Positions 1 through 11,235 of a DNA stretch of 64,000 nucleotides are shown one piece after another; the first letter of the stretch is position 1; each line of letters starts with the position of its first letter. Below the pieces are notes generated by a model, which searched no databases, had not been told where the DNA came from, and worked only from the letters and a program-made list of their open reading frames with translations. Both the position numbers and the translations under genes were made by a program. Source of the stretch: Chloroherpetonaceae bacterium. Lineage in GTDB: Bacteria; Bacteroidota; Chlorobiia; Chlorobiales; Thermochlorobacteraceae. The stretch is from the NCBI GenBank assembly GCA_025056565.1, contig JANWWA010000001.1, positions 157,966 to 221,965 on the forward strand. Direction: 5' to 3'.

Positions 1-594
1 GCCATAGTGAGCAAGAAATTTATCAATATCATTTTCAGTGAAGGGTGAGTGACCCGTGTAGTGATTGACCGTATAGACAAGTGGTCCGTGAAACATTAAT
101 ACGCTGATTTTTTCATAGCTTTCTAATATCGATAAGCCACCAAGCAGTTCTGCTATGATGCGCACAATGTCAATAAAGTCGTGTCGCTCCTTGGTTCCAC
201 CTTCTAAATCGCCGAGAATTACAGGGTAGTAGCCAAACTTTTCTCGTTCTGCCAAATTGCGCTCCCCTGATTTGACCACGTATGAACCGACGCGCAATAG
301 AACGGGAACTTGACTGGAAAGCTCGACTTGACCCACGCCGCCATCTATGAACGCAACGACTTCGCCTTGAAATTGAGACCAATCTGCATTGCTGATTTTG
401 TGCTTGGTGAAAATAGGCTCATTAGTACGCTCCATCGCTTTGCGGAGCGCAGCGATGAATTTAGCAGTGTTGTTGAAATAATTTCCTCTGAGGCTTTCTG
501 CGACTTGTAGAGCATTTTCGGCGAGTTTGAGCATTATGCTGGGCTGCCGCTGCAGATCCTTCTTAACACCTTCTTCTGAAAGATATTCGCTCAT
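1..594 (-). CDS. NurA-like nuclease domain protein, N-terminal 198 codons only (gene runs off the window start)
   Basis: Absent from the ORF track because there is no stop in the window. Hand translation of the reverse strand from the ATG at 594-592 gives an open frame down to base 1: MSEYLSEEGVKKDLQRQ...EVVAFIDGGVGQVELS...DFIDIVRIIAELLGG...VLMFHGPLVYTVNHYTGH. The order of the D / E / xGPL blocks recalls NurA-type nucleases from memory. The start overlaps the upstream stop (tcat at 591-594, an ATGA overlap). Confidence 0.45.
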   Translation of the reverse strand, partial: MSEYLSEEGVKKDLQRQPSIMLKLAENALQVAESLRGNYFNNTAKFIAALRKAMERTNEPIFTKHKISNADWSQFQGEVVAFIDGGVGQVELSSQVPVLLRVGSYVVKSGERNLAEREKFGYYPVILGDLEGGTKERHDFIDIVRIIAELLGGLSILESYEKISVLMFHGPLVYTVNHYTGHSPFTENDIDKFLAHYG

Positions 595-1037
595 CGCCTC
601 ACCTCGCTTTGAAAAATCCACGCCTTCATTTGCTTCATTCTACTACCAATTCCGCCTTGCGCGCAAGTTAGATTGAGCTTGGGCAATTCTTCCGATAAGG
701 CAAGCGCGGAGAAATATGCTTTGCCCAAATTAACAAAAACATCGGCATATTTTTCCCTTCGAAGCAAGCGGTCAAGCTGCCTCGAGACAGACGGAGCAAG
801 CTCAAAGGCGCGCGCAGCGGTCATCTTCAAATCGTAGTCATCAATCCACGTCTCAGGAGAGAGCAAACCGTGCTTTGCCGAAAGAATCAAGACGTCAAGA
901 TTTTTCGGGAAAGCGTTTTCGCGTTGCAGTTTTTTGAGCAGGCGAAAACTTACGCCGTCGTAACGCTCCCACGCAGGCAGTTTGCCTTTGCTTGAACGCT
1001 TGCGGTCGGAGCATGAAATGATGAGCAGTCTACGCAT
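591..1037 (-). CDS. small YaaA(DUF328)/DUF6884-like protein of unknown function
   Basis: 148 aa, ATG at 1037-1035. The N-terminus LLIISCSDRKR..KLPAWERYDGVSF and the block ILSAKHGLLSPETWIDDYDLKM match the pattern I recall for DUF6884/YaaA-like proteins. Translationally coupled to the downstream NurA-like gene. Confidence 0.45.
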   Translation of the reverse strand: MRRLLIISCSDRKRSSKGKLPAWERYDGVSFRLLKKLQRENAFPKNLDVLILSAKHGLLSPETWIDDYDLKMTAARAFELAPSVSRQLDRLLRREKYADVFVNLGKAYFSALALSEELPKLNLTCAQGGIGSRMKQMKAWIFQSEVRR

Positions 1038-1166
1038 TGCGAGCGCAAGTGAATTCCATGCAAAATCAAGCTATACGGAAAAGCGGGACGCGATTGCTTT
1101 TTCCGTTGCGAAAAAAGCCGTAAGTTTCGGCATCATTGTAACATTTCCATTGAAAAAGGAGGAAGT

Positions 1167-1961
1167 ATGCAAATCATCAATTCCTACAATGCTGTAAGCG
1201 AGACCGGCGAAAAAATTGACCTCCAAAAACTCCAAGCTGTGATGGCGCAATTCAAATTGAAGCACAACGCCGTTGCCATCACTTACTGCCGCCATGAACC
1301 GCCTCCGGGCTATACGCCTATTCAAGATGTGCCATGCGCCCTTGTGTATCACGCCGATACAGGCAAGCGCGTCTATATCGATCGCCACAACCATGATTGC
1401 CTCGTCGGACTCTACCACCTCGGTATGCTTGAAAATGCCAGCGAATACATCACCGACGGCATTTATATGACCGATGTGCAGCAGTTCTACACGCTCGAGG
1501 CAGCCAAAGCTAACAAACACAACACTGCCAACTTGCCTAAAGGTGAGTTTAAGGCGATTGCTGCCGCGCCAATTTCAATGGTGGAAGACGAAAGTCTGGT
1601 GCACCTTGTCATTGTCATCTGTGAGCCACAGTATGCGATGATTCTTGCAGGGGCCGCCTCAACACGCATTGGTAAATTCCCAATTGGCGAACTTGGAATG
1701 AGTGCCTGTTCTTCGCTCTTCAGCGTGCCGTATTTGGAGAATAATAGCGTCTTTGTCGTGGGCGACGGTGGCGGCAGAATCCACAACCACCTTCAGACCA
1801 GCGAAATGTTCGCCTGTATTCCACGTGACCACATTAAGCATCTTTTCGCAGTGGCGGATAGCTTCAAAATCACACCTGCTGAAATGCGCAAGCGCATTCG
1901 CCCGTCATATTTTGAGGAAAATGTCTATGGCGGTAACAAGCGGTCTGCTGCGCAAGGATAA
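1167..1961 (+). CDS. DUF169-like protein (uncharacterised)
   Basis: 264 aa ORF with a strong SD (AGGAGG at 1157-1162, 4 nt spacer). Size and Cys/Gly-containing blocks recall DUF169 (COG2043). The family call is tentative. Confidence 0.45.
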   Translation: MQIINSYNAVSETGEKIDLQKLQAVMAQFKLKHNAVAITYCRHEPPPGYTPIQDVPCALVYHADTGKRVYIDRHNHDCLVGLYHLGMLENASEYITDGIYMTDVQQFYTLEAAKANKHNTANLPKGEFKAIAAAPISMVEDESLVHLVIVICEPQYAMILAGAASTRIGKFPIGELGMSACSSLFSVPYLENNSVFVVGDGGGRIHNHLQTSEMFACIPRDHIKHLFAVADSFKITPAEMRKRIRPSYFEENVYGGNKRSAAQG

Positions 1962-2043
1962 ACCAGTGCAGAGCGCGCTGAATCTCTACACGAAAGTGTG
2001 GCGCATCCTTTTCGCTGGCCTTGTGAAAAGGGTTATGCTGCTA

Positions 2044-4209
2044 TCAAGCCCGTGAGAAGCGCTGCACAAAGGAAATCCGATAGGGCTTTTTTGTGAGCTT
2101 GAGGTCGAAGCACATTACCACAACAGAGCCTTGATAGACGCGCTCAAAGCCATCTTCCGATAGCGAAATGGTCTCAATGGGGTAGCGCAGGACAGTTGCG
2201 TCTTCCGACGCTTCCAGCCGTGCGTGAATATGCAACCACTCGTCCTTTAAGCCAACCATTCGGGAACGCACTTCGCCCATTGAGCGCAAACGTCGGTCAG
2301 CCAGCTCAATGCCGTCAAAGTAATAGTAGCGGTCAGGTGCATCGCCTGCCAGCAGTCCATAAGCAAACTCTACGCCGAAGCGAAGTGGCGGAAGCACTTC
2401 GTCAGAGACCAAGCGCAGCACATAATCTACCGTGAACTCTGATTTGCCTTTGGCAAGCGTTACAGCTTTTGATAGTTCAACAAATGCTGCCTTGCCTGCC
2501 GAGCGCACTTCGCCAACGCACTCAAGCACGACGGTGCGTTTGGCTTTGTTGCCGCTGAGCTTGTAAGAATAGGCTCGCGTAATAAAGTCGCCTAGTTCAA
2601 CGGCTTTGCTTTGGTAGAGGTCTTCTGCCGTAACCGATGGTTCAAAGAAGTGGTCAATCAGGCTGCCACGCCGATAGGTGTCGTAGTAGAGATACTTGTC
2701 AAGGTCCGCCTCTTTCATCTTCACGATATCGTGAATGCTGGCAACCCCTTCGTTCTGTGCATGAGCATGTGAGCCTTTTCTTGCAAACTCACGTAGCTCG
2801 GCGTGGTATCCTTCTTCGCGGCGTGTCAGAATGTCTAAAATGTTCTTGCGTGCAGCTTTGTAATCCAGCTCGACCAGTTTGCCGCCGTCCGAAGGCTTGA
2901 AGTATAGCCCTAATTCGTTGGATTTAAGCACGATGTCTTCTTGACCATCACGGTCAAAGTCATAAACTGAGACGGTTACGTCGCCGTGCTTGTTGTCAAT
3001 TGCATCCAGCGCCACTTCTGCTTCAAGCAGGTTTTGGTAGATGGGGTGGCGCAAATTTGGCAAATAAGTGCCTCCAAATACACCGTGCCAGTACGGACAA
3101 TTGCATTGAGCCGCCCAGATTTTATCTAAAACCTTACTGCCTACCTTCTTGCCTTTTGCCAGCAAGGCTTGCGCCCGTGCAGAGACTTCCAGCATTCGCT
3201 TGTGCATCTGGTTGGCTTCGGGATACTTCACCATAAAATTGCGCCAAAAGCCTCCCCGCACGAAGACATCATTGCCATCAAGCAAGTGGTGCTTCTTTAG
3301 CGCTTTCTCAAATTGTTCAAATGCACGATAGGATTTGACGGTCGGCAGCGACCAGTGCATCATCTCGGCATAAGACGCATTTGAGAGATAGATTCTGCCA
3401 ATCGGTTTCAGCTCACGCAAGGCTTCAGCAAAGGTCATCATTCGAATCCAACTGCGGTTTTCGTCCAGCGCTTTAAAGAACTGCTCAAGCCAACGGTCTT
3501 TGACATAGACATGTTCGTAGGTGTTGGGCCAGACGCCAAACTTTTCGCCATCGTCCGCAAAAACCACTAGCCGCTCTCCGCTTTCATCTGCGACGCTGTA
3601 GAGATATTCCAGTGTTTTTTCCACAGGTTGAAAAGGAATGGTGTAGCGCAAAGTTTTGGAAATTGGGAAAAGGTTTGTAGTGTAGCCTTGCTCTTCGGTG
3701 ATGTAGTAGCCCAGAAGTTGCTCATCGCTAAGACCAGCATACTTGAAATGCGTGTCATCCAAAATCACATATCGAATGCCTGCTTGTGCCAGCGGTTTAG
3801 TGAGATGTTGTTCCCAGATGCGTTCTGCCAGCCAAAGTCCTTCGGCACGAAAGCCGAAGTGTTTTTTGATGAACTTCGTGAGTTTCTCAATCTGCCCAAT
3901 TTTGTCTTCGTCAGGAATAACCGCTAAGATAGGTTCATAGAATCCACCGCTAATCAGTTCAATGTTGCCACGCTTGACCAGCGCTCGTAGCTGGTCGAAG
4001 AAATCAGGGTGTTTTTCCAAGAGCCACTCGAAGAGAATGCCCGTGTAGTGTTTGGAGATTTTGAGGTTTGGGAACTTCTCAAAGACATCGAGAAAGGGCT
4101 TGTATGCACGCTGGTAAGCGTCTTCGAAGACAGAGTCGAAATTGCCGATAGGTTGGTGATTATGCGTGCCGAAAATGAGATTGATTTTTTTCATAGCGAG
4201 CGTCGGCAT
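2044..4209 (-). CDS. GH57 family alpha-amylase / 4-alpha-glucanotransferase-like protein
   Basis: 721 aa. The N-terminus INLIFGTHNHQPIGNF...YKPFLD...HYTGILFEWL is typical of glycoside hydrolase family 57, and there is a long C-terminal extension as in DUF1926-containing GH57 enzymes. Confidence 0.85.
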   Translation of the reverse strand: MPTLAMKKINLIFGTHNHQPIGNFDSVFEDAYQRAYKPFLDVFEKFPNLKISKHYTGILFEWLLEKHPDFFDQLRALVKRGNIELISGGFYEPILAVIPDEDKIGQIEKLTKFIKKHFGFRAEGLWLAERIWEQHLTKPLAQAGIRYVILDDTHFKYAGLSDEQLLGYYITEEQGYTTNLFPISKTLRYTIPFQPVEKTLEYLYSVADESGERLVVFADDGEKFGVWPNTYEHVYVKDRWLEQFFKALDENRSWIRMMTFAEALRELKPIGRIYLSNASYAEMMHWSLPTVKSYRAFEQFEKALKKHHLLDGNDVFVRGGFWRNFMVKYPEANQMHKRMLEVSARAQALLAKGKKVGSKVLDKIWAAQCNCPYWHGVFGGTYLPNLRHPIYQNLLEAEVALDAIDNKHGDVTVSVYDFDRDGQEDIVLKSNELGLYFKPSDGGKLVELDYKAARKNILDILTRREEGYHAELREFARKGSHAHAQNEGVASIHDIVKMKEADLDKYLYYDTYRRGSLIDHFFEPSVTAEDLYQSKAVELGDFITRAYSYKLSGNKAKRTVVLECVGEVRSAGKAAFVELSKAVTLAKGKSEFTVDYVLRLVSDEVLPPLRFGVEFAYGLLAGDAPDRYYYFDGIELADRRLRSMGEVRSRMVGLKDEWLHIHARLEASEDATVLRYPIETISLSEDGFERVYQGSVVVMCFDLKLTKKPYRISFVQRFSRA

Positions 4210-4223
4210 TGTCAGTTTAGGCG

Positions 4224-4231
4224 CAAAGGTA
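4224..4231 (-). promoter_or_regulatory. candidate Bacteroidota-type -7 promoter box (TAccTTTG) for the GH57 gene
   Basis: Plus-strand caaaggta reads as TACCTTTG on the minus strand. It lies 14 nt upstream of the ATG at 4209. Exact match to TAnnTTTG. Confidence 0.4.
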
Positions 4232-4369
4232 AAGAATTGCAGGCATTTTTTGAGTGGCGCAGGGCTTGTAGCGTATTGCCTCAGTCCGAAGATAATTGCA
4301 GTGGGGTTTCGTCAGGCTGCTTGCTCCCACTTTTCTTCTTTGCAAGCTGCGCCTCCCCTGCCCTCGGTG

Positions 4370-7006
4370 CTACTTGCCTTCTGCAAGGCGCCTCAGTTCA
4401 GCCAGTTTCAAAAGGGCTTCAATTGGCGTCAGGCGATTGAGGTCTAACTGCAGCAATGCTTCACGCAGCTTGCTGTCGCCCATTTCAAACAGCGAGATTT
4501 GAAAATTCTCCTGCGGTATCGCTCGCAGCTCAACTTTTTTGGCTTTGCTGCGCAAGTCCTTTTCCTCAGCAAGCCGTTGAGCTTCTTCACGCTCAAGGCG
4601 CGCCAGAATCTCTCGCGCTCGCTCAATGACCGACGCTGGCAGACCAGCCATCTTTGCGACTTCGATACCAAAACTATTCTGTGCCGCGCCTCGCTCAATT
4701 TTGCGCAGGAAAATCACCCTGTCCCCAGTTTCTACCACTGCTGCATTGAAGTTTTTAAGCCGAGGGAGGTGCGCTTCCAATTCAGACAGCTCATGATAGT
4801 GCGTGGCGAAAAGTGTTTTTGCGCCAATCACATCGTGGATATGCTCCGTGATTGCCCATGCAATTGACATTCCATCGTAGGTGCTAGTGCCACGTCCGAT
4901 TTCATCAAGTAAAATGAGGCTGCGTGCCGTCGCATGGTTCAAAATGTGTGCGGCTTCGTTCATCTCGACCAGAAAGGTGCTTTCACCTGCTGCAAGGTTA
5001 TCGCTTGCGCCTACGCGCGTAAAAATCTTATCCACCAGTCCAATTCTGGCACGCTCTGCTGGCACAAACGAGCCAATCTGTGCCAGCAGCACAATTAGCC
5101 CTGTCTGGCGCAAGTAAGAGCTTTTCCCTGCCATATTCGGCCCCGTGATCAGCATCAGACGCGTCTCGCTGTCGAGCAAGCAGTCATTCGGCACATACTT
5201 TTCGCCCGGTGGCATGAGGCGCTCCAAGACAGGATGCCGCCCCTGAACAATTTGCAAGATGTCTTCATCAGTTACCTCAGGCTTGCTGTAGCCGTAGAGT
5301 GTGGCGCATTCTGCAAAGGATTGCAGCGTGTCCAAGATAGCCAATGCTTCAGCATTGGCTTGAATGCGCTCTGCTGCACTGGCCACTTTTTGGCATAGCT
5401 CGCTAAAAAGGCGCGTCTCGAGCTCGAGCCGCTTTTCTTCAGCAGAAAGAATTTTTGCCTCGTATTCTTTGAGTGCAGGAATGGTGTATCGCTCGGCATT
5501 CACCAGCGTTTGCTTGCGCTCATAGTGCGGTGGGACCTTACTCCGATTGGCGTGGCTGATTTCAATATAGTAGCCAAAGACCTTGTTGTAGAGCACCTTT
5601 AGCGACGCAATACCTGTTTTTTCACGCTCTTCTTGCTGAATTTGAATCAAGCGTTTTTCTGCATTACGCACAATCTCACGGAGCTCATCGAGTTCAGCGT
5701 GGTAGCCTGCTTGAATCACATTTCCATCCGCAGGCGAAGCCGGTGCATCAGGCGAAATTGCGGCCTGAATCTCCGAGACCAGCTCACTGCAGTCATAGAG
5801 CGCCGCACATAGCTGTCGCAGCAAGCGACTCTGGCAAGCAGACAGGTAGTGCTGAACGTTCGGAATCTGCGCAAGCGACCCTGCAAGAATGAGCAAATCT
5901 CTGGGCGCCGCACGCCCAATCGCAATGCGCGACAGTACACGCTCAAGGTCGCATAGTCCTCTAAGCAAGTCGCGCAGAGCAGTGCGACGGTGGCTATCAG
6001 CAACCAGCTCTGCCACCGCATCCAGCCGCTGATGAATGAGGGATAAATTGCGAGAAGGGCGAGCCAGCCATTTTTTAAGCATTCGCGCGCCCATTGCGGT
6101 AAGCGTCTTATCCAAAATGCCAAGCAGCGTGCCGCTACGCGAGCCATCTTGCATAGAGTAAAGAATCTCCAAGTTACGCTTGGTCTGTGGGTCAAGCGTC
6201 ATTGTGTCGCCCAAGTCAAGGCGAGAGAGCTTGCGAATGTATTCGAGCTTGTGGCGCTGCGTGTCGGCTAAGTAGTTCAAAATGACAGAGGCTGCGACTT
6301 TGGCCGCATCCAGCGACTCAATGCCAAAGCCCTTGAGTGAATGCACCTTGAAATGATTGCGTAGCGTCTGCTCAGCGTAATCAAGGCTAAACAGCCACTC
6401 ATCGAGTTCGGTAAAGGCTACCTGCGCAGGCGCACTTTGCTCAAGGAATAGGCGCTCTGCTTTTTGCTTTTTAGAGTAAAGAATTTCTGAGGGCTGAATG
6501 GTTTGCAGTGCTTCGGCAAATGCACCACGCTCCACTTCTAAGGCTTGAAACTCAGCGGTTGTTACGTCAATGAAAGCAATGCCGATGCTCCCCTTAGCAG
6601 CAAAGTGAACGGCACACAGGTAGTTGTTGCGCTTTTCATCAAGGAGCTTATCGCTAAAATTGACGCCGGGTGTGATGATGTCCGTTACTTCCCGCTTGAC
6701 AATGCCGCGCGCAAACTTTGGGTCTTCCATCTGCTCGCACACGGCTACACGAAACCCTTGTCTAACCAGCTTTGCCACATAAGTTTCAAGGGCGTGATGT
6801 GGAAAGCCAGCCAGCGGCACATCTGCTGCCGCACCGTTTGCGCGCTTTGTCAGCACAATACCGACTGCTTCAGAGAGTCGCTTGGCATCGTCGTGAAAGG
6901 TCTCGTAAAAGTCGCCCACGCGAAAGAGCAAAATCACATCTGGATAGCGCGACTTGATTTTCTCATACTGCCGCATCAGCGGCGTGTCGTCCTGCTTCTT
7001 TGCCAC
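4370..7006 (-). CDS. mutS: DNA mismatch repair protein MutS
   Basis: TPLMRQYEKIKSRYPD N-terminus, Walker A block GPNMAGKSSYLRQ, and the motifs STFLVEMNE and DEIGRGTSTYDG. The track start at 7054 is TTG. The GTG at 7006 gives MAKKQDDTPLMRQY, a typical MutS N-terminus. Confidence 0.95.
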   Translation of the reverse strand: MAKKQDDTPLMRQYEKIKSRYPDVILLFRVGDFYETFHDDAKRLSEAVGIVLTKRANGAAADVPLAGFPHHALETYVAKLVRQGFRVAVCEQMEDPKFARGIVKREVTDIITPGVNFSDKLLDEKRNNYLCAVHFAAKGSIGIAFIDVTTAEFQALEVERGAFAEALQTIQPSEILYSKKQKAERLFLEQSAPAQVAFTELDEWLFSLDYAEQTLRNHFKVHSLKGFGIESLDAAKVAASVILNYLADTQRHKLEYIRKLSRLDLGDTMTLDPQTKRNLEILYSMQDGSRSGTLLGILDKTLTAMGARMLKKWLARPSRNLSLIHQRLDAVAELVADSHRRTALRDLLRGLCDLERVLSRIAIGRAAPRDLLILAGSLAQIPNVQHYLSACQSRLLRQLCAALYDCSELVSEIQAAISPDAPASPADGNVIQAGYHAELDELREIVRNAEKRLIQIQQEEREKTGIASLKVLYNKVFGYYIEISHANRSKVPPHYERKQTLVNAERYTIPALKEYEAKILSAEEKRLELETRLFSELCQKVASAAERIQANAEALAILDTLQSFAECATLYGYSKPEVTDEDILQIVQGRHPVLERLMPPGEKYVPNDCLLDSETRLMLITGPNMAGKSSYLRQTGLIVLLAQIGSFVPAERARIGLVDKIFTRVGASDNLAAGESTFLVEMNEAAHILNHATARSLILLDEIGRGTSTYDGMSIAWAITEHIHDVIGAKTLFATHYHELSELEAHLPRLKNFNAAVVETGDRVIFLRKIERGAAQNSFGIEVAKMAGLPASVIERAREILARLEREEAQRLAEEKDLRSKAKKVELRAIPQENFQISLFEMGDSKLREALLQLDLNRLTPIEALLKLAELRRLAEGK

Positions 7007-7063
7007 AGCTTGCTTAGGCGATAGTTTAGCAAGAATACCTACGCAAAAATACAAACTGCACTG

Positions 7064-7645
7064 TCAGAGATTGATCACCTCTTTGCCTTGAAGAATATCA
7101 CGAAAGCGAATTGCATACTGCACAAATGATGCAAACAGCAAGCCGGTTGCTATCCAGATGCACACGGTTTTTGCCAAAGAGAAGTCAATCGTCGGATAAG
7201 GGAACACAATCATTGCGTAGAGCAGTGCCACAAAGCCAACGGCCCACTTGCCCGCTGGCAACGCCGTTGTGAGGATATGCTTGCGGCGCTTGGCATAAAT
7301 TCCTCCACCGAAGATAATCGCATCACGCAGGAAAAGAAACACCACAAACCACAGCGGCAATTCACCCAGGTAGGCAAAGTACATGCCTATCAGCGCTGCC
7401 GAGAGCTTGTCGGCAAGCGGGTCCAAAATTTTGCCCATTTCAGAGACACTGTTTGTCCAGCGTGCTACGCGTCCATCAAACCAGTCTGTTGAAATCGCCA
7501 CCAGCATGAGCACAAATGCTGTGAGTTTGTCGCCATTGGAGAAGAAGTAAATAAACGGTGGCACAAGCAAAATGCGCAGCACGCTTAGGAAATTAGACAG
7601 CGTAAAAATGCGTTCTTGCGCTCGATGAGTAGAAGTGCTCTGCAT
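7064..7645 (-). CDS. CDP-alcohol phosphatidyltransferase family protein
   Basis: Motif DWFDGRVARW...GKILDPLADK (D-x2-DG-x2-AR...G-x3-D-x3-D) plus several TM segments. The track start at 7690 is TTG, so I prefer the ATG at 7645 (MQSTSTHRAQ). Confidence 0.8.
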   Translation of the reverse strand: MQSTSTHRAQERIFTLSNFLSVLRILLVPPFIYFFSNGDKLTAFVLMLVAISTDWFDGRVARWTNSVSEMGKILDPLADKLSAALIGMYFAYLGELPLWFVVFLFLRDAIIFGGGIYAKRRKHILTTALPAGKWAVGFVALLYAMIVFPYPTIDFSLAKTVCIWIATGLLFASFVQYAIRFRDILQGKEVINL

Positions 7646-7704
7646 ATTAAACGTGGCGTTGAAATCGCTTTTCAGAAGCGTTGGCGTCAAAATCTAATGC
7701 ACAA

Positions 7705-7998
7705 ATGGTCCCAAACAAATATACTGCGCTTGAGCGCCTGCAAATTTTTAAGCCTGTTGCCTCCTTCGGTGTCCTAAGAGCCGCCCTGATAGAGGAAATT
7801 CAGTTAGGCAATCGTTTGCCCGTAGAAATTACGGAGGAAAATATCATTGCTTTTGCCACTGAAATTGGTTTTGAGAAGTGCGAAGCCAGCGATTGCGATC
7901 TATGGTATAACGCTCGCAAAGCATGGTTTATGGTTGATGCAGGGGAAAAAATCTGCCGAATGTGTGCGGTCTTGCGCGGTTTAGAGCCAGAGTTTTAG
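7705..7998 (+). CDS. hypothetical small protein with C-terminal Cys pairs
   Basis: The track ORF starts at a TTG at 7681, and the first ATG is at 7705. The C-terminus CEASDC...CRMC suggests a possible zinc ribbon. No family recognised. Confidence 0.35.
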   Translation: MVPNKYTALERLQIFKPVASFGVLRAALIEEIQLGNRLPVEITEENIIAFATEIGFEKCEASDCDLWYNARKAWFMVDAGEKICRMCAVLRGLEPEF

Positions 7999-8051
7999 AG
8001 TTGTGCACAATGTCTTTTCGCTGTGCACTGCGCTATTCTATACGCTGCTCT

Positions 8052-9080
8052 TCAAGGCACACGACGCCAACGCGTATTTATCAGCAACACTTCTAATGCA
8101 AGGCACAGTAGCGCTGGCGTCAGAAACCGCACAAATTCTTCTTTGTATTCCGTAAAGGTCTCCACCTCTACTTTGGTTTTTTCCAGCGCGTCAATCTCTC
8201 GGTAAATCTTTTTGAGACTTTCATAGTCGGTTGCACGAAAGTATCGACCTCCTGTCAAATCTGCGATACGTGTGAGTGTCGCATCATCGACATCGACTTT
8301 GACGCGCATATAGCGCTTGCCGAAGAGCGGGTCTTCAAAGGGATAATTTGCATAGCCTTGTGTGCCTGCGCCGACCGTGTAGATTTTGATGCCCAGTGCG
8401 GCTGCTAACTCTGCCGCAGTAATCGGCTCAATCTCACCTGCGTTGTTCTGTCCATCTGTCAGCAAAATGATGACTTTGCTCTTTGCCTGTGAGTCTCGCA
8501 AACGATTGGCAGCCGTTGCAATCGCTAGCCCAATAGCCGTGCCGTCCTCTGCAAGCTGCCCTGCTTCCAGCTTCGCAATCAGTGTTTTGAGGAGATTGTA
8601 GTCCAGCGTCAGTGGACATTGGGTATAGCTTTGTCCTGCGAACACAACTAGACCAATTCGGTCGCTGATACGATGGTTGATAAAATCAATTGCCACTTCT
8701 TTGGCTGCCTCAATGCGATTTTTCGGCTCAAAGTCTTCTGCCAGCATTGAGCCAGAGAGGTCTATGACCATCATAATATCGATACCTTCTGCATACACGG
8801 TCTGACGCTGATTTTCCAAGCGCGGACGTGCCAGTGCCACAATGAGAAAACTGAGTGCCAAAATGCGCAGCCCGAGCGGCATATAGCGTCCCAGTTGCAG
8901 CCAAATCGCCTGATGCCCCGTTTTTACCAGCTCCTTCACGCTTGAGAACACCACTGCTGGCAACCGCCCAGTTCGCACTCGATGCCAGTGCCAGAACACC
9001 AGCACAGGCAGAAGCAGCAGCAACCAGAACGCTTCGGGGTTTTGAAACGAAAAGTTTTCTTGAAAGAAAAGCTCTACCAT
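8052..9080 (-). CDS. batA: VWA domain protein, BatA-like
   Basis: N-terminal F..P.AFWLLLLLPVLVFWHW TM pair followed by a von Willebrand A domain (DIMMVIDLSGSM MIDAS-like motif). ATG at 9080 directly abuts the stop of the upstream gene. Confidence 0.75.
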   Translation of the reverse strand: MVELFFQENFSFQNPEAFWLLLLLPVLVFWHWHRVRTGRLPAVVFSSVKELVKTGHQAIWLQLGRYMPLGLRILALSFLIVALARPRLENQRQTVYAEGIDIMMVIDLSGSMLAEDFEPKNRIEAAKEVAIDFINHRISDRIGLVVFAGQSYTQCPLTLDYNLLKTLIAKLEAGQLAEDGTAIGLAIATAANRLRDSQAKSKVIILLTDGQNNAGEIEPITAAELAAALGIKIYTVGAGTQGYANYPFEDPLFGKRYMRVKVDVDDATLTRIADLTGGRYFRATDYESLKKIYREIDALEKTKVEVETFTEYKEEFVRFLTPALLCLALEVLLINTRWRRVP

Positions 9081-10034
9081 TTATGGCGTTTTTGCTAAGT
9101 TCGTTGTCGGTGCTGGCTCTACTGGCTTGGCTACCTCAATAATTTGGTAAGCCAATGCCCAGCTTTCTTTCGCCTCAGAGAATTCAGGCTGGAACTTAGC
9201 AAACTTGACCAAATCTGCTGTTTCCAATAGCCTGCGTATGCGTCCCACTTCTTCGGGCGGTCGGCGCATTTCCATTACAGCACAAATCTCCGATGTTAGC
9301 TGTTCCCGTGCGTTGAAGTTGTAGTAGTTTTCCAAAAATTCCCGCACAGTGTCGCTAAGCAGAGTGTAGTAGGTTTTGTAGTCCTCAGGCGTACGCAGCG
9401 AGTAGTCTGCTAAGCTCTGCAGCTTCTCAGATGCAATTTGGTAAGGCGTCTTGGCAGGTCGGTTCTCTACGGTCGGTGTTGGCATTGGCATAGGACGATG
9501 CCGCCAGTATCGCACCAGTAGGTAGATGCCCACTGCGACTGCCAGCAGCAATGCACCGCCCAACACATAAATCCACGCTGGCACAGGCACACTGCGCACT
9601 GGCTTAATGTCCACAATATCCTTACGTGCTGTATCCAGCAAGGAACGAACATAAACCTTTTGCGCCCCTAACCACAGTGAATCTGCACGATTTGCTGCTT
9701 CATCAAAGTAAGTAAGCCGAATGGGTGGCACGACCTGCATGCCTGTATCAAACACGGTCAGCGTATAGCGCACGCTCTCCAGTCGTAGCTCTTCTCTGGT
9801 TTCGTCAGGCAAGCGATTCATCTGGCGCACTTCAAACGGATAAAATACCAGTGAGTCGCTTGCGGCCGGATACTGCATCTGCACCGATGGCTTTTTAAGC
9901 ACCTGAATGGTGTAGAACACTTCATCGCCAATCGTGCATGTATCTGGCGATAGCGACACGGTTGCAACAGGCTGTGCCAGTGCACCTTGCATTACGAGCA
10001 GAATCAGACTCAGGCTCCCCCAAATGCGTCGCAT
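9081..10034 (-). CDS. membrane protein, BatD-like N-terminal domain plus DUF4381-like C-terminal region
   Basis: Signal peptide (LLVMQGALAQP), a beta-rich ectodomain, a central TM (WIYVLGGALLLAVAVGIYLLV) and a helical tail ending ...ADLVKFAKFQP, as I recall for DUF4381. The family call is tentative. Confidence 0.5.
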   Translation of the reverse strand: MRRIWGSLSLILLVMQGALAQPVATVSLSPDTCTIGDEVFYTIQVLKKPSVQMQYPAASDSLVFYPFEVRQMNRLPDETREELRLESVRYTLTVFDTGMQVVPPIRLTYFDEAANRADSLWLGAQKVYVRSLLDTARKDIVDIKPVRSVPVPAWIYVLGGALLLAVAVGIYLLVRYWRHRPMPMPTPTVENRPAKTPYQIASEKLQSLADYSLRTPEDYKTYYTLLSDTVREFLENYYNFNAREQLTSEICAVMEMRRPPEEVGRIRRLLETADLVKFAKFQPEFSEAKESWALAYQIIEVAKPVEPAPTTNLAKTP

Positions 10035-10159
10035 AGGTCTTTGGTCGTGTTACGTTCTCTGCATTGATTTTTTAGTGTGCAAAGTGCATCTCAAACTCTG
10101 ATTTCTGTGCCTCAAATCTTGCTTCTTCGAAAAGGCAGAAAGATAGGACGGAAATGTAG

Positions 10160-10182
10160 AAAGGCGGGCTTGACCCGCCTTT
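10160..10182 (-). terminator. putative hairpin terminator after the ABC substrate-binding gene
   Basis: AAAGGCGGG cttga CCCGCCTTT forms a 9-bp stem 25 nt past the stop at 10207. The flanking T-tract is weak. Confidence 0.4.
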
Positions 10183-10206
10183 GTCTTGCCACGAAAGAGA
10201 CTTTGA

Positions 10207-11235
10207 TTACAAAGGCTGCGATTCTGGCGGTGGTGTGAAACCAAGTTCCTGCGCCATTTTTGCATTGTGCACCAGCTTTCGCACTTTAACTGGACGCAAG
10301 CCTACTGCCACAAGGTCGCCTGTGTCAAAGTATTCAGCGGCAGCCTCACCTGCTTGATAGCCCCACATATAGAAATCTGCACCGTAGGCAATCGTTGCCC
10401 CACGCTTCACAAGCCCCGTTTCGGAGGTTACAATCGGCACCTTCTTTGCGAGTGTTTCCTTCAGGATAATCTCAAAGCTAGCAAAGACCAAATTGTCAGG
10501 TAAGGCAAAAAAGACATCGGGATTTTTTGCCAAAATCGCTTGCACGGCTTGCTGGGTTTCTGCCGTCGAGGTAATAGCCCGCTCCACCAGTTTGATATTA
10601 TTCTGCTTGCACTTTTTTCGGAGCTCCCCCATTGCGTTGGTAGAGTTCGGCTCAGCACTGTTGAAAATCACGCCAATTGTTTTTGTGTTCGGAAACGCTC
10701 GCTTGATAAGTGAAATGCTGGAATCAATATATGCCAGTGTTTCATAGACGCCAACAAGGTTCGGTGGCGGCTTGACATTGCCATCTTTGGTCTTAATTGC
10801 AAGGTCATTAATGGTTGGCGCGGGTCCCACCATCATAAAAATTGGAATCTCTTTGGTTTTCTTGAGTGCTGTCATCATTGGCAAGGTGGCATTGGCTGCA
10901 ATGCAGGTTACCTTGTCGGCAATGAACTTATCAATAATCTGGTTTAGCGTTGGAATATCATTTTGTGCGTTCTGGTAGATAATTTTCGCCGTCCCTGCCG
11001 TGTCAGAGTATCCTCTTTTAGCCAGCGCATCAATAAAGCCCTTGCGTGCCTCGTCGAGCGTTTCATCCTCGACGGGTTGCACAAAACCAATCACGACAGG
11101 TTTCTTGGCCGGTTTTTCAATAGAACTTTCAGGCTTTTTTGGCTCTTCTGGCTTCGATGTGCAACCGACTGCGCCACCAATTAGTGCCAGCCAGAAAAGA
11201 ACGCCGCGCCACATAGAAAAAGCAGTGCGATTCAT
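10207..11235 (-). CDS. ABC transporter substrate-binding lipoprotein (COG2984-type)
   Basis: Lipobox LIGGAVGC after MNRTAFSMWRGVLFWLA. The body resembles the 'ABC-type uncharacterised transport system periplasmic component' family. The track start at 11262 is TTG, and an ATG lies at 11235. Confidence 0.7.
   Translation of the reverse strand: MNRTAFSMWRGVLFWLALIGGAVGCTSKPEEPKKPESSIEKPAKKPVVIGFVQPVEDETLDEARKGFIDALAKRGYSDTAGTAKIIYQNAQNDIPTLNQIIDKFIADKVTCIAANATLPMMTALKKTKEIPIFMMVGPAPTINDLAIKTKDGNVKPPPNLVGVYETLAYIDSSISLIKRAFPNTKTIGVIFNSAEPNSTNAMGELRKKCKQNNIKLVERAITSTAETQQAVQAILAKNPDVFFALPDNLVFASFEIILKETLAKKVPIVTSETGLVKRGATIAYGADFYMWGYQAGEAAAEYFDTGDLVAVGLRPVKVRKLVHNAKMAQELGFTPPPESQPL

Follow-up and report, generated by a model that had tools for sequence, protein, structure and literature searches.

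Modification of DNA with 7-deazaguanine bases is so far known from phages and from large Dpd islands. In the Dpd system of Salmonella Montevideo (DpdA, DpdB and DpdC, together with DpdD-K), DpdA inserts preQ0 into DNA with the assistance of an ATPase (PMC10164549), and DpdC, a protein of the DUF328/YaaA family, acts on the inserted base and converts it to ADG (PMC10164549; PMC12839542). Here we analysed the edge of a 64,000-nt stretch of DNA from a Chloroherpetonaceae bacterium (GenBank assembly GCA_025056565.1, contig JANWWA010000001.1, positions 157,966 to 221,965 of the forward strand), which is called the window below and in whose numbering positions are given. At this edge, a DUF6884 gene is followed by a truncated gene of the NurA family. 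Comparison with related loci indicates that the two genes are very probably part of what a deletion has left of a four-gene cassette with the order DUF6884, NurA nuclease (~489 aa), HerA, a hexameric translocase ATPase (~590 aa), and TGT-family transglycosylase (~345-380 aa).

Three further groups of systems are relevant for comparison. In archaea and Deinococcus, a NurA-domain nuclease is encoded beside a HerA (DUF87) ATPase. The TdpABC system, in which TdpA is HerA-like and TdpB is NurA-like, combines modification and a HerA-like/NurA-like restriction complex in compact form. Its sole modification gene is tdpC (PMC12914056). For BREX-related capture (BRC), a published computational precedent, a defence system was predicted that has recruited a TGT homologue, along with a HerA/FtsK translocase, as a DNA-marking module (PMC12839542).

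The genes at the edge of the window are two coupled minus-strand frames, as had been reported in a first-pass annotation made from the sequence; the list of open reading frames (ORFs) and direct translation confirmed them. The DUF6884 gene (591..1037, minus strand) is an intact ORF of 148 aa with an ATG start and opens the remnant operon. The truncated NurA-family gene (1..594, minus strand) begins with MSEYLSEEG and is present with the first 198 of its 210 codons, without a stop inside the window. Its ATG (594-592) overlaps the TGA of the DUF6884 gene (593-591) in an ATGA (591..594, minus strand), which was read from the sequence GAGGTGAGGCGATGAGCGAA and implies translational coupling; the purine run GAGGTGAGG is located just 5' of the start. 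The sequence blocks pointed out in the annotation were all found (CSDRK and LSAKHG; FIDGG, AELLGG and MFHGPL). Both ORFs are real genes and not chance frames, because the DUF6884 protein matches its Pfam profile with 56.8 bits and the NurA fragment has 127 homologues with E-values down to 1e-125.

The NurA frame had been described as truncated by the window edge. It is open to base 1, but the true truncation is a genomic deletion, and the frame continues for only 12 codons past the edge. This was found in four Chloroherpetonaceae assemblies that share 98.9-99.7% identity with the window, and it is from these, not from the window's own contig, that the content beyond base 1 was taken. They encode the same protein (100% identity over 198 residues), which ends at 210 aa with AKSQRGREIKES and a stop codon. 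A 376-aa TGT-family gene starts immediately after this stop. The gene order in the four assemblies is the divergent DUF169 gene, the DUF6884 gene (148 aa), the 210-aa ORF, the TGT-family gene and the convergent genes for an E1 dehydrogenase and LplA. The ATPase gene that had been suggested beyond the window start is thus missing: no HerA gene is present in the four assemblies of this lineage, and TGT directly adjoins the NurA stump. HerA does follow NurA in relatives, but no ATPase does so in this organism. Ordinary housekeeping genes downstream, which had been named as a finding that would speak against a defence operon, do occur here as the convergent E1 dehydrogenase and LplA genes, but only after the TGT-family gene. 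This fourth gene is the most informative one and had not been foreseen.

To map the deletion, we aligned the DNA of L002, a locus of the window type, with that of the intact locus L079. Two collinear blocks were obtained, which meet at a junction of AAAGAGAG with TTAGATGACC (in longer context, GAAATAAAAGAGAG with TTAGATGACC). The junction joins NurA codon ~213 to the bases just before the ATG of TGT. Approximately 2.66 kb are absent, comprising NurA residues ~215-489 (the C-terminal 57%) and all of HerA, so that a stump of 210 aa remains of a protein of ~489 aa. The stop/start adjacency has been kept at both ends of the stump. The outer genes are retained: the window and L002-L004 all carry the intact DUF6884 frame of 148 aa, and L002 has an intact TGT frame of 376 aa. 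In L004, the TGT frame stays open as far as the contig reaches. In L003, a 1-nt insertion removes the last ~36 residues of TGT; it lies next to TCGA and could be artefactual. For annotation, it follows that the 'NurA-like' ORF is a deletion stump without HerA and is not to be counted as an active defence system.

Shortened cassettes also occur elsewhere. In Nostoc NMS7, an independent remnant has NurA residue ~277 fused to TGT residue ~121, and the locus of its close relative Mojavia is intact. L074 is another deletion remnant, and L078 carries multiple stops.

The assignment of the stump to NurA had to come from full-length orthologues, because the 198-aa fragment alone matches no family: it gave no NurA match in Pfam at E<=1, no match at all in PADLOC and NCBIfam, and otherwise only noise. 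A homology search with the fragment found the 127 relatives. The best one is a 100%-identical 210-aa protein from Chloroherpetonaceae metagenome-assembled genomes (P0001), and the others are longer and 60-70% identical. With residues 7-214 of the L079 protein (489 aa), the fragment shares 78% identity. This full-length protein matches Pfam NurA (PF09376) with 41.2 bits (cutoff 21; E=1.8e-10; residues 82-436 on positions 1-252 of 254 of the profile), and a C-terminal NurA piece of locus L005 reaches 22.1 bits with the same profile. The earlier call of a NurA-type protein is borne out by this orthologue and by a fold search, in which an AlphaFold2 model of the homologue P0005 (pLDDT 70.5) was compared with the Protein Data Bank (PDB) by Foldseek. 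The top 11 PDB matches were all NurA (E-values from 3.5e-6 to 1.9e-2). The best one was chain 9x1n_G of Thermococcus kodakarensis HerA-NurA (3.5e-6), followed by further chains of T. kodakarensis HerA-NurA and then by NurA of Sulfolobus solfataricus (2ygk) and Pyrococcus furiosus (3tal and 3tai), by 3taz and by TM1739 (1zup). The TM-scores were low (0.18-0.33), because the model lacks the C-terminus and has poorly predicted N-terminal helices; the search supports a NurA fold and defines no detail of it. When a sequence profile of the NurA-like family was searched against the sequences in the PDB, only spurious matches to ribosomal protein L14 had been obtained, and the fold search was used instead.

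The stump comprises a helical region at the N-terminus and the beginning of the RNase-H-like NurA domain. It retains D84 (in FIDGG, residues 82-86), E149 (in AELLGG, 148-153) and H169 (in MFHGPL, 167-172). D84, encoded at 343..345 on the minus strand, is an invariant column in an alignment of 22 sequences (A2) and corresponds to D88 of the L079 protein. It is the first-strand aspartate of this family and probably has a catalytic role, as suggested by the point at which the NurA profile of Pfam begins to align and by what is known of other NurA proteins. The stump lacks ~275 C-terminal residues, including the GLDIADK and RDW blocks, which are near-invariant in the same alignment. It cannot form a complete NurA domain, and its nuclease function is almost certainly gone.

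Intact NurA is one continuous ORF of ~480-495 aa in nearly all of the 69 species-representative loci of our census. A conserved recoding site had been suspected, since three database homologues stop at ~341-346 aa. It was rejected because of this continuity and because the stop codon in L005 replaces a conserved tryptophan codon. In L005 (CADEOX010000020.1), an in-frame TGA at 9024-9026 stands where relatives have the tryptophan of SEPW, and gene callers split this NurA into 341 and 136 aa. Two further database homologues end within 1-2 residues of the same position. The TGA of L005 could be due to a pseudogene, a sequencing error or read-through.

The assignment of the small protein to DUF6884 was substantiated by a match to Pfam PF21818 (56.8 bits, cutoff 30; E=3.4e-15; residues 5-138 on positions 2-134 of 135 of the profile) and by the presence of both motifs that the Pfam curators defined for this family, CxxxK and LSAxxG (PMC11701544). 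In the window protein, these are C9-S-D-R-K13 (residues 9-13) and L52-S-A-K-H-G57 (residues 52-57). The proposed link to YaaA/DUF328 was sustained in part. With Pfam YaaA (PF03883), the window protein scores 26.3 bits, below the cutoff of 29.6, and covers only positions 70-170 of 236, but its L079 orthologue (146 aa, 63% identical) passes with 39.8 bits. These scores point to a relationship at the superfamily level and not to membership in the family. With the PADLOC model of DpdC, the window protein matched at E=0.011 over residues 11-76 (positions 44-105 of 312), so that a DpdC-specific match was not obtained; for the L079 protein, the DpdC model gave E=5.6e-4 over positions 53-100 of 319. 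A much better match was to component A of PDC-M57 in PADLOC (E=5.1e-10; positions 1-133 of 138). YfjM, which belongs to DUF6884, was recovered in pull-downs on DNA lesions, binding to abasic or RNA-base lesions was described, and an AlphaFold3 model flips the base into a pocket (PMC11701544). In L079 (2522-2674) and L086 (695-847), a duplicate of the first 51 DUF6884 codons (90% identical) lies ~0.6 kb upstream of the intact gene and adjoins RelB/ParE toxin-antitoxin genes.

The closest intact relatives (L079, L080, L081 and L086) encode proteins of 146 aa (DUF6884), 489 aa (NurA), 597 aa (HerA) and 380 aa (TGT). HerA, which has no counterpart in the window lineage, was assigned by Pfam (DUF87), PADLOC and NCBIfam (helicase_HerA, 5.1e-48). 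TGT of the window lineage is 79% identical to that of L079. The TGT just beyond the window exceeds the cutoffs of the general models (Pfam PF01702, 69.9 versus 26.3 bits; NCBIfam tgt_general, 51.2 versus 47.6 bits), and the scores with the equivalog models remain below the cutoffs for DpdA (37.1 versus 200 bits), TgtA (79.9 versus 350) and Tgt (19.4 versus 306.75). Conserved DSG and DSQ motifs of the cassette TGTs align to the catalytic aspartates D95 and D249 of ArcTGT (1iq8).

In the census, all four genes were present in cassette order in 47 of the 69 loci, and ~8 more were merely cut by contig ends. NurA-HerA without DUF6884 and TGT was found in five loci (L019, L023, L051, L063 and L066); the rest included three loci without DUF6884 only, one without TGT only and two deletion remnants. 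The recurrence of the DUF6884-NurA pair, which the annotation had left to be checked, was evident: at least 55 loci have DUF6884 as the gene immediately upstream of NurA. HerA, the partner expected of NurA, stands beside it in 65 loci, with one further locus cut by a contig end and two deletion remnants lacking HerA. Altogether, the cassette occurs in at least 65 species of more than 10 phyla, including cultured cyanobacteria and Bacteroidota; its hosts belong to Chloroflexota, Acidobacteriota, Cyanobacteria, Poribacteria, Planctomycetota, Bacteroidota, Rhodothermales and others. Cultured carriers of the intact cassette include Adhaeribacter aerolatus NBRC 106133 (L058), Nodosilinea sp. LEGE 07088 (L026), Coleofasciculus sp. 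LEGE 07092 (L050) and strains of Microcoleus (L048, L055 and L068). Identities of 60-79% across unrelated phyla and the patchy distribution indicate that the cassette has spread horizontally. The families of its components are all known, and their four-gene combination is apparently undescribed: we found no description of a DUF6884-NurA-HerA-TGT cassette in a literature search that was incomplete, with many subscription papers outside it.

With respect to defence islands, the copies differ. The window copy is surrounded by ordinary housekeeping genes (DUF169, GH57 and MutS) and does not lie in a defence island. Intact copies are found beside defence-type neighbours, namely toxin-antitoxin genes, an integrase, a transposase and giant helicases, including a DEAD/MZB helicase of 1597 aa. 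A tblastn search of phages and a scan of IMG/VR with TGT gave no copy in the phage and viral collections, which is neutral to a role in defence.

The cassette appears to be composed of two modules. Between cassettes of the L005 type and the L079 type, NurA and HerA are 58-64% identical, but TGT is 20% and DUF6884 ~40% identical, which argues that the two halves have separate histories. The five NurA-HerA loci without DUF6884 and TGT mirror the window locus and support this organisation. We also scanned metagenomes with the window-type TGT and obtained 44 loci, of which 36 had DUF6884 beside TGT or within a few kb; the eight loci without a DUF6884 match were mostly short contigs or had TGT at a contig edge. 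Four kinds of partner accompanied the DUF6884-TGT pair: NurA-HerA; a 616-aa protein with a second type of HerA; giant helicases of the SNF2 or DEAD-MZB type (1079-1838 aa); and PIN_4 with a BrxC/D-like ATPase and two unknown proteins.

In the second kind of partner, a sister cassette (L084, 5128-7014; L082 and L087-L121), the conserved 616-aa protein, to which no family could be assigned, replaces NurA. It carries the motifs FVAIDGT, GIVKDS and YPDPLHKAD, which look NurA-like. With Pfam NurA, it remained below the threshold (0.0018), and hhalign of the NurA-like family with it gave a probability of 3%. Its HerA matches the PADLOC model 'HerA, Type III coevolved' (4e-104), which is derived from accessory genes of CRISPR type III.

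In two loci (L104, 947-1651; L120, 953-1657), a Vut_1 transporter gene (E ~1e-52) is located directly upstream of DUF6884-TGT. Pfam Vut_1 (PF02592) is presumably the YhhQ/COG1738 family of queuosine-precursor transporters. YhhQ transports preQ0 (PMC5372724). This adjacency is the most direct hint that DUF6884-TGT may use a 7-deazaguanine base.

How does the cassette compare with the systems described above? Like Dpd, it combines in one operon a TGT-superfamily protein, a small protein of the YaaA/DUF328 fold, an ATPase and nuclease/helicase-type genes, and the DpdA and DpdC models of PADLOC and NCBIfam match its proteins weakly. Unlike Dpd, it has four genes instead of eleven and lacks the ParB-like DpdB and DpdD-K. 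Its ATPase is HerA and its nuclease is NurA, and its DUF6884 protein (~146-220 aa) is shorter than the DpdC model (~312-319), which it covers only partially. With archaeal and Deinococcus NurA-HerA, it shares the neighbouring nuclease and ATPase genes and the fold indicated by the matches to T. kodakarensis, S. solfataricus and P. furiosus NurA. However, neither Mre11 nor Rad50 was found beside it, its nuclease and ATPase genes are tied to TGT and DUF6884 and spread horizontally, and its NurA is very divergent, with an additional N-terminal helical region of ~80 residues. TdpABC resembles the cassette in its proposed logic, and the TdpAB structure 8wfd_G was among the fold matches, with a weak match to TdpB (E=0.03, probability 0.30). 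The mark of TdpABC is a phosphorothioate, whereas a base exchange is presumed for the cassette, and TdpABC contains neither TGT nor DUF6884. BRC has PglZ, the BrxC-like DUF6079, a STAND NTPase, DUF4007 and GNAT, and its authors report no DpdC homologue and do not mention NurA (PMC12839542); the cassette has no BREX-type genes but has DUF6884 and NurA. The near end-to-end match of the window DUF6884 protein to PDC-M57A means that this family has already been flagged as a defence candidate. NurA, HerA and TGT match no PDC-M57 component in PADLOC, and we found no PDC-M57 literature.

We propose that the intact cassette would be a restriction-modification-like defence system of two modules. In the first, TGT and DUF6884 would act in analogy to DpdA and DpdC: TGT would replace guanine bases of the host DNA by a 7-deazaguanine, for instance preQ0, and the YaaA-fold DUF6884 protein would bind the flipped modified base and either finish or read the modification. 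In the second, NurA-HerA would thread and degrade DNA without the mark; the closest precedent is the HerA/NurA-like restriction pair TdpAB alongside modification by TdpC. In the window genome, the restriction half would be gone and at most an orphan modification pair would be left. Overall, we consider this explanation, a decayed cassette that when intact is a two-module system resembling restriction-modification, to be likely. That the cassette is a defence-type system is, judged by itself, somewhat probable; that its mark is a 7-deazaguanine is a tentative assignment, somewhat less likely than not. Should it be correct, the cassette would join the well-understood motor-nuclease NurA-HerA to an enzyme resembling DpdA and a protein resembling DpdC. 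It would thus offer a much simpler setting for how the mark is written, why an ATPase is needed for this and how the mark is read by a translocase-nuclease.

Several points weigh against this interpretation. The cassette TGTs reach the superfamily level only: the TgtA model outscores the DpdA model, and two cassette TGTs score 37 and 24 bits with the DpdA equivalog, for which 200 are needed. The matches of the DUF6884 proteins to DpdC models are weak and partial (0.011 for the window, 5.6e-4 for L079). The Vut_1 adjacency occurs in only two of ~50 loci, and none of the preQ0 biosynthesis genes was seen inside the cassettes in 17-kb loci. Which base is exchanged, whether DNA or RNA is the target and in which direction the system discriminates are all matters of inference. 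Finally, the stump ORF is open and perfectly coupled in all four strains and may have a residual role.

One alternative is a genuine three-gene variant, in which the 210-aa protein would be a functional short protein of the NurA N-terminal domain, for example an adaptor or regulator. The open ORF, its tight coupling at both ends and its full conservation in four assemblies fit this, and the protein has kept those N-terminal blocks that are best conserved in the family and contain many invariant columns. However, the form was seen in a single strain cluster of at least 98.9% DNA identity, in which conservation is uninformative. Compared with an intact cassette of 78-79% identity, its end falls on a clean deletion junction, and its last 12 residues align with internal sequence of L079 NurA instead of forming a new tail. 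As more than half of the NurA domain is missing, including GLDIADK and RDW, and the short forms in Nostoc NMS7 and L074 have other breakpoints, we regard a three-gene variant as very improbable. A different question is whether DUF6884 and TGT still modify the host DNA as an orphan module, with the stump tolerated or kept for coupling. Methyltransferases are known to persist as such orphans once their nuclease has been lost. The deletion took exactly the putative restriction genes and left the stop/start adjacency, the DUF6884 and TGT frames are intact with their conserved motifs in the assemblies listed above, the differences between DUF6884 haplotypes are mostly synonymous (10 synonymous versus 5 non-synonymous codons) and DUF6884-TGT pairs without NurA-HerA exist elsewhere. 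Base-calling errors at TCGA in locus L001, described below, also suggest some DNA modification in this organism, but an ordinary TCGA methyltransferase is a simpler cause. Moreover, the L003 insertion costs TGT its last ~36 residues, if it is not an artefact at TCGA, and the deletion in Nostoc NMS7 also destroyed the TGT N-terminus, so decay of the whole cassette does occur. An active orphan modification module in the window genome is putative and appears rather unlikely.

The remaining alternatives concern the intact cassette. It might serve the invaders' destruction from the outset: TGT would attack guanines of the invader, and DUF6884 would recognise the lesion or abasic site and recruit NurA-HerA to shred the DNA. 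The described binding of a DUF6884 member to abasic and RNA-base lesions, with the modelled base flip (PMC11701544), is consistent with this, and so are the position of DUF6884 directly before NurA, with coupling, and the lack of a linked preQ0 supply gene in most cassettes. Against it, DUF6884 and TGT are lost together in the five loci in which NurA-HerA stays, and they travel as a pair with other restriction-type modules; joint loss and joint travel are the pattern expected of a modification module. DpdA, the known DNA-acting TGT homologue, is also self-modifying (PMC10164549). We therefore consider an effector role of TGT unlikely. Even less can be said for a housekeeping function, in which NurA-HerA would be a machine for the resection of DNA double-strand breaks, encoded beside a tRNA-modifying TGT and a YaaA-like oxidative-stress protein. 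NurA-HerA is known as an end-resection complex (PMC3326311; PMC12977600), YaaA has been linked to peroxide stress, YfjM was pulled down on DNA lesions (PMC11701544) and the window copy stands among MutS, GH57 and DUF169. But the patchy distribution with 60-79% identity across unrelated phyla speaks for horizontal transfer, no Mre11 or Rad50 gene adjoins the cassette in the loci examined, and independent deletion or pseudogenisation is frequent. Intact copies neighbour toxin-antitoxin, integrase, transposase and giant-helicase genes, the cassette TGTs are not equivalogs of the tRNA enzymes Tgt and TgtA, and DUF6884-TGT swaps between different nuclease and helicase partners. A housekeeping role is thus very unlikely. 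The same swapping leads to a broader proposal beyond our favoured two-module interpretation: DUF6884 and the divergent TGT might constitute a mobile DNA guanine-exchange module, distinct from DpdABC, that plugs into interchangeable restriction modules and defines a new and widespread family of base-exchange restriction-modification systems, and the orphaned pair might still mark the chromosome of the window organism. We put this forward as speculation with a low probability.

Strain variation was examined for further indications. In the 594 nt of the stump, five sequences showed no non-synonymous and at most one synonymous difference, a variation too low for selection on the stump to be judged. 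Positions 650-1000, inside the DUF6884 gene, are a divergence hot spot among these ~99% identical strains. Relative to L002-L004, the gene has 15 codon differences in 447 nt (10 synonymous, 5 non-synonymous), with none in the adjacent 594-nt stump, and the hot spot is probably a recombination tract. A second divergence cluster was seen at 7500-7749.

Ongoing decay had been considered for L001 (JAVQZX010000011.1), which has a premature stop in TGT and a frameshift in DUF6884. It was rejected, as the disabling changes lie in TCGA sites. When window 1-10594 was compared with L001 and L002, 10 of the 14 L001-specific substitutions hit the CG in the middle of a TCGA site and were C>T or G>A changes, as opposed to 3 of 70 L002-specific and 0 of 17 window-specific ones; indels of L001 also occurred at CTCGAG. 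The TGT stop and the DUF6884 frameshift of L001 are probably motif-specific basecalling artefacts. Miscalls of this specificity suggest that the DNA of the organism is modified at TCGA. It is quite unlikely that the DUF6884-TGT module contributes to this signal of the long-read assembly (GCA_033582735.1).

In the window, the remnant operon is separated by a 129-bp intergenic region (1038..1166) from the divergent DUF169 gene (1167-1961, plus strand; Pfam DUF169, 1.3e-31), and both promoters presumably sit in this region. A scan for the sigma-70 consensus gave no candidate above chance, and scans for tRNA, Rfam families, promoters and terminators across the window found nothing relevant. Next come, both on the minus strand, a gene (2044-4209) for a glycoside hydrolase of family GH57 that has AmyA-glucanotransferase domains, and the MutS gene (4370-7054).

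Over the whole window (1-64000), several 4-bp palindromes are strongly avoided, with observed/expected ratios of 0.10 for GATC, 0.13 for GTAC, 0.14 for CTAG, 0.16 for CCGG, 0.18 for GGCC and 0.24 for ACGT. TCGA is mildly low (0.69), and GCGC (2.15) and TGCA (2.05) are enriched. The avoidance suggests long-term pressure from several restriction systems.

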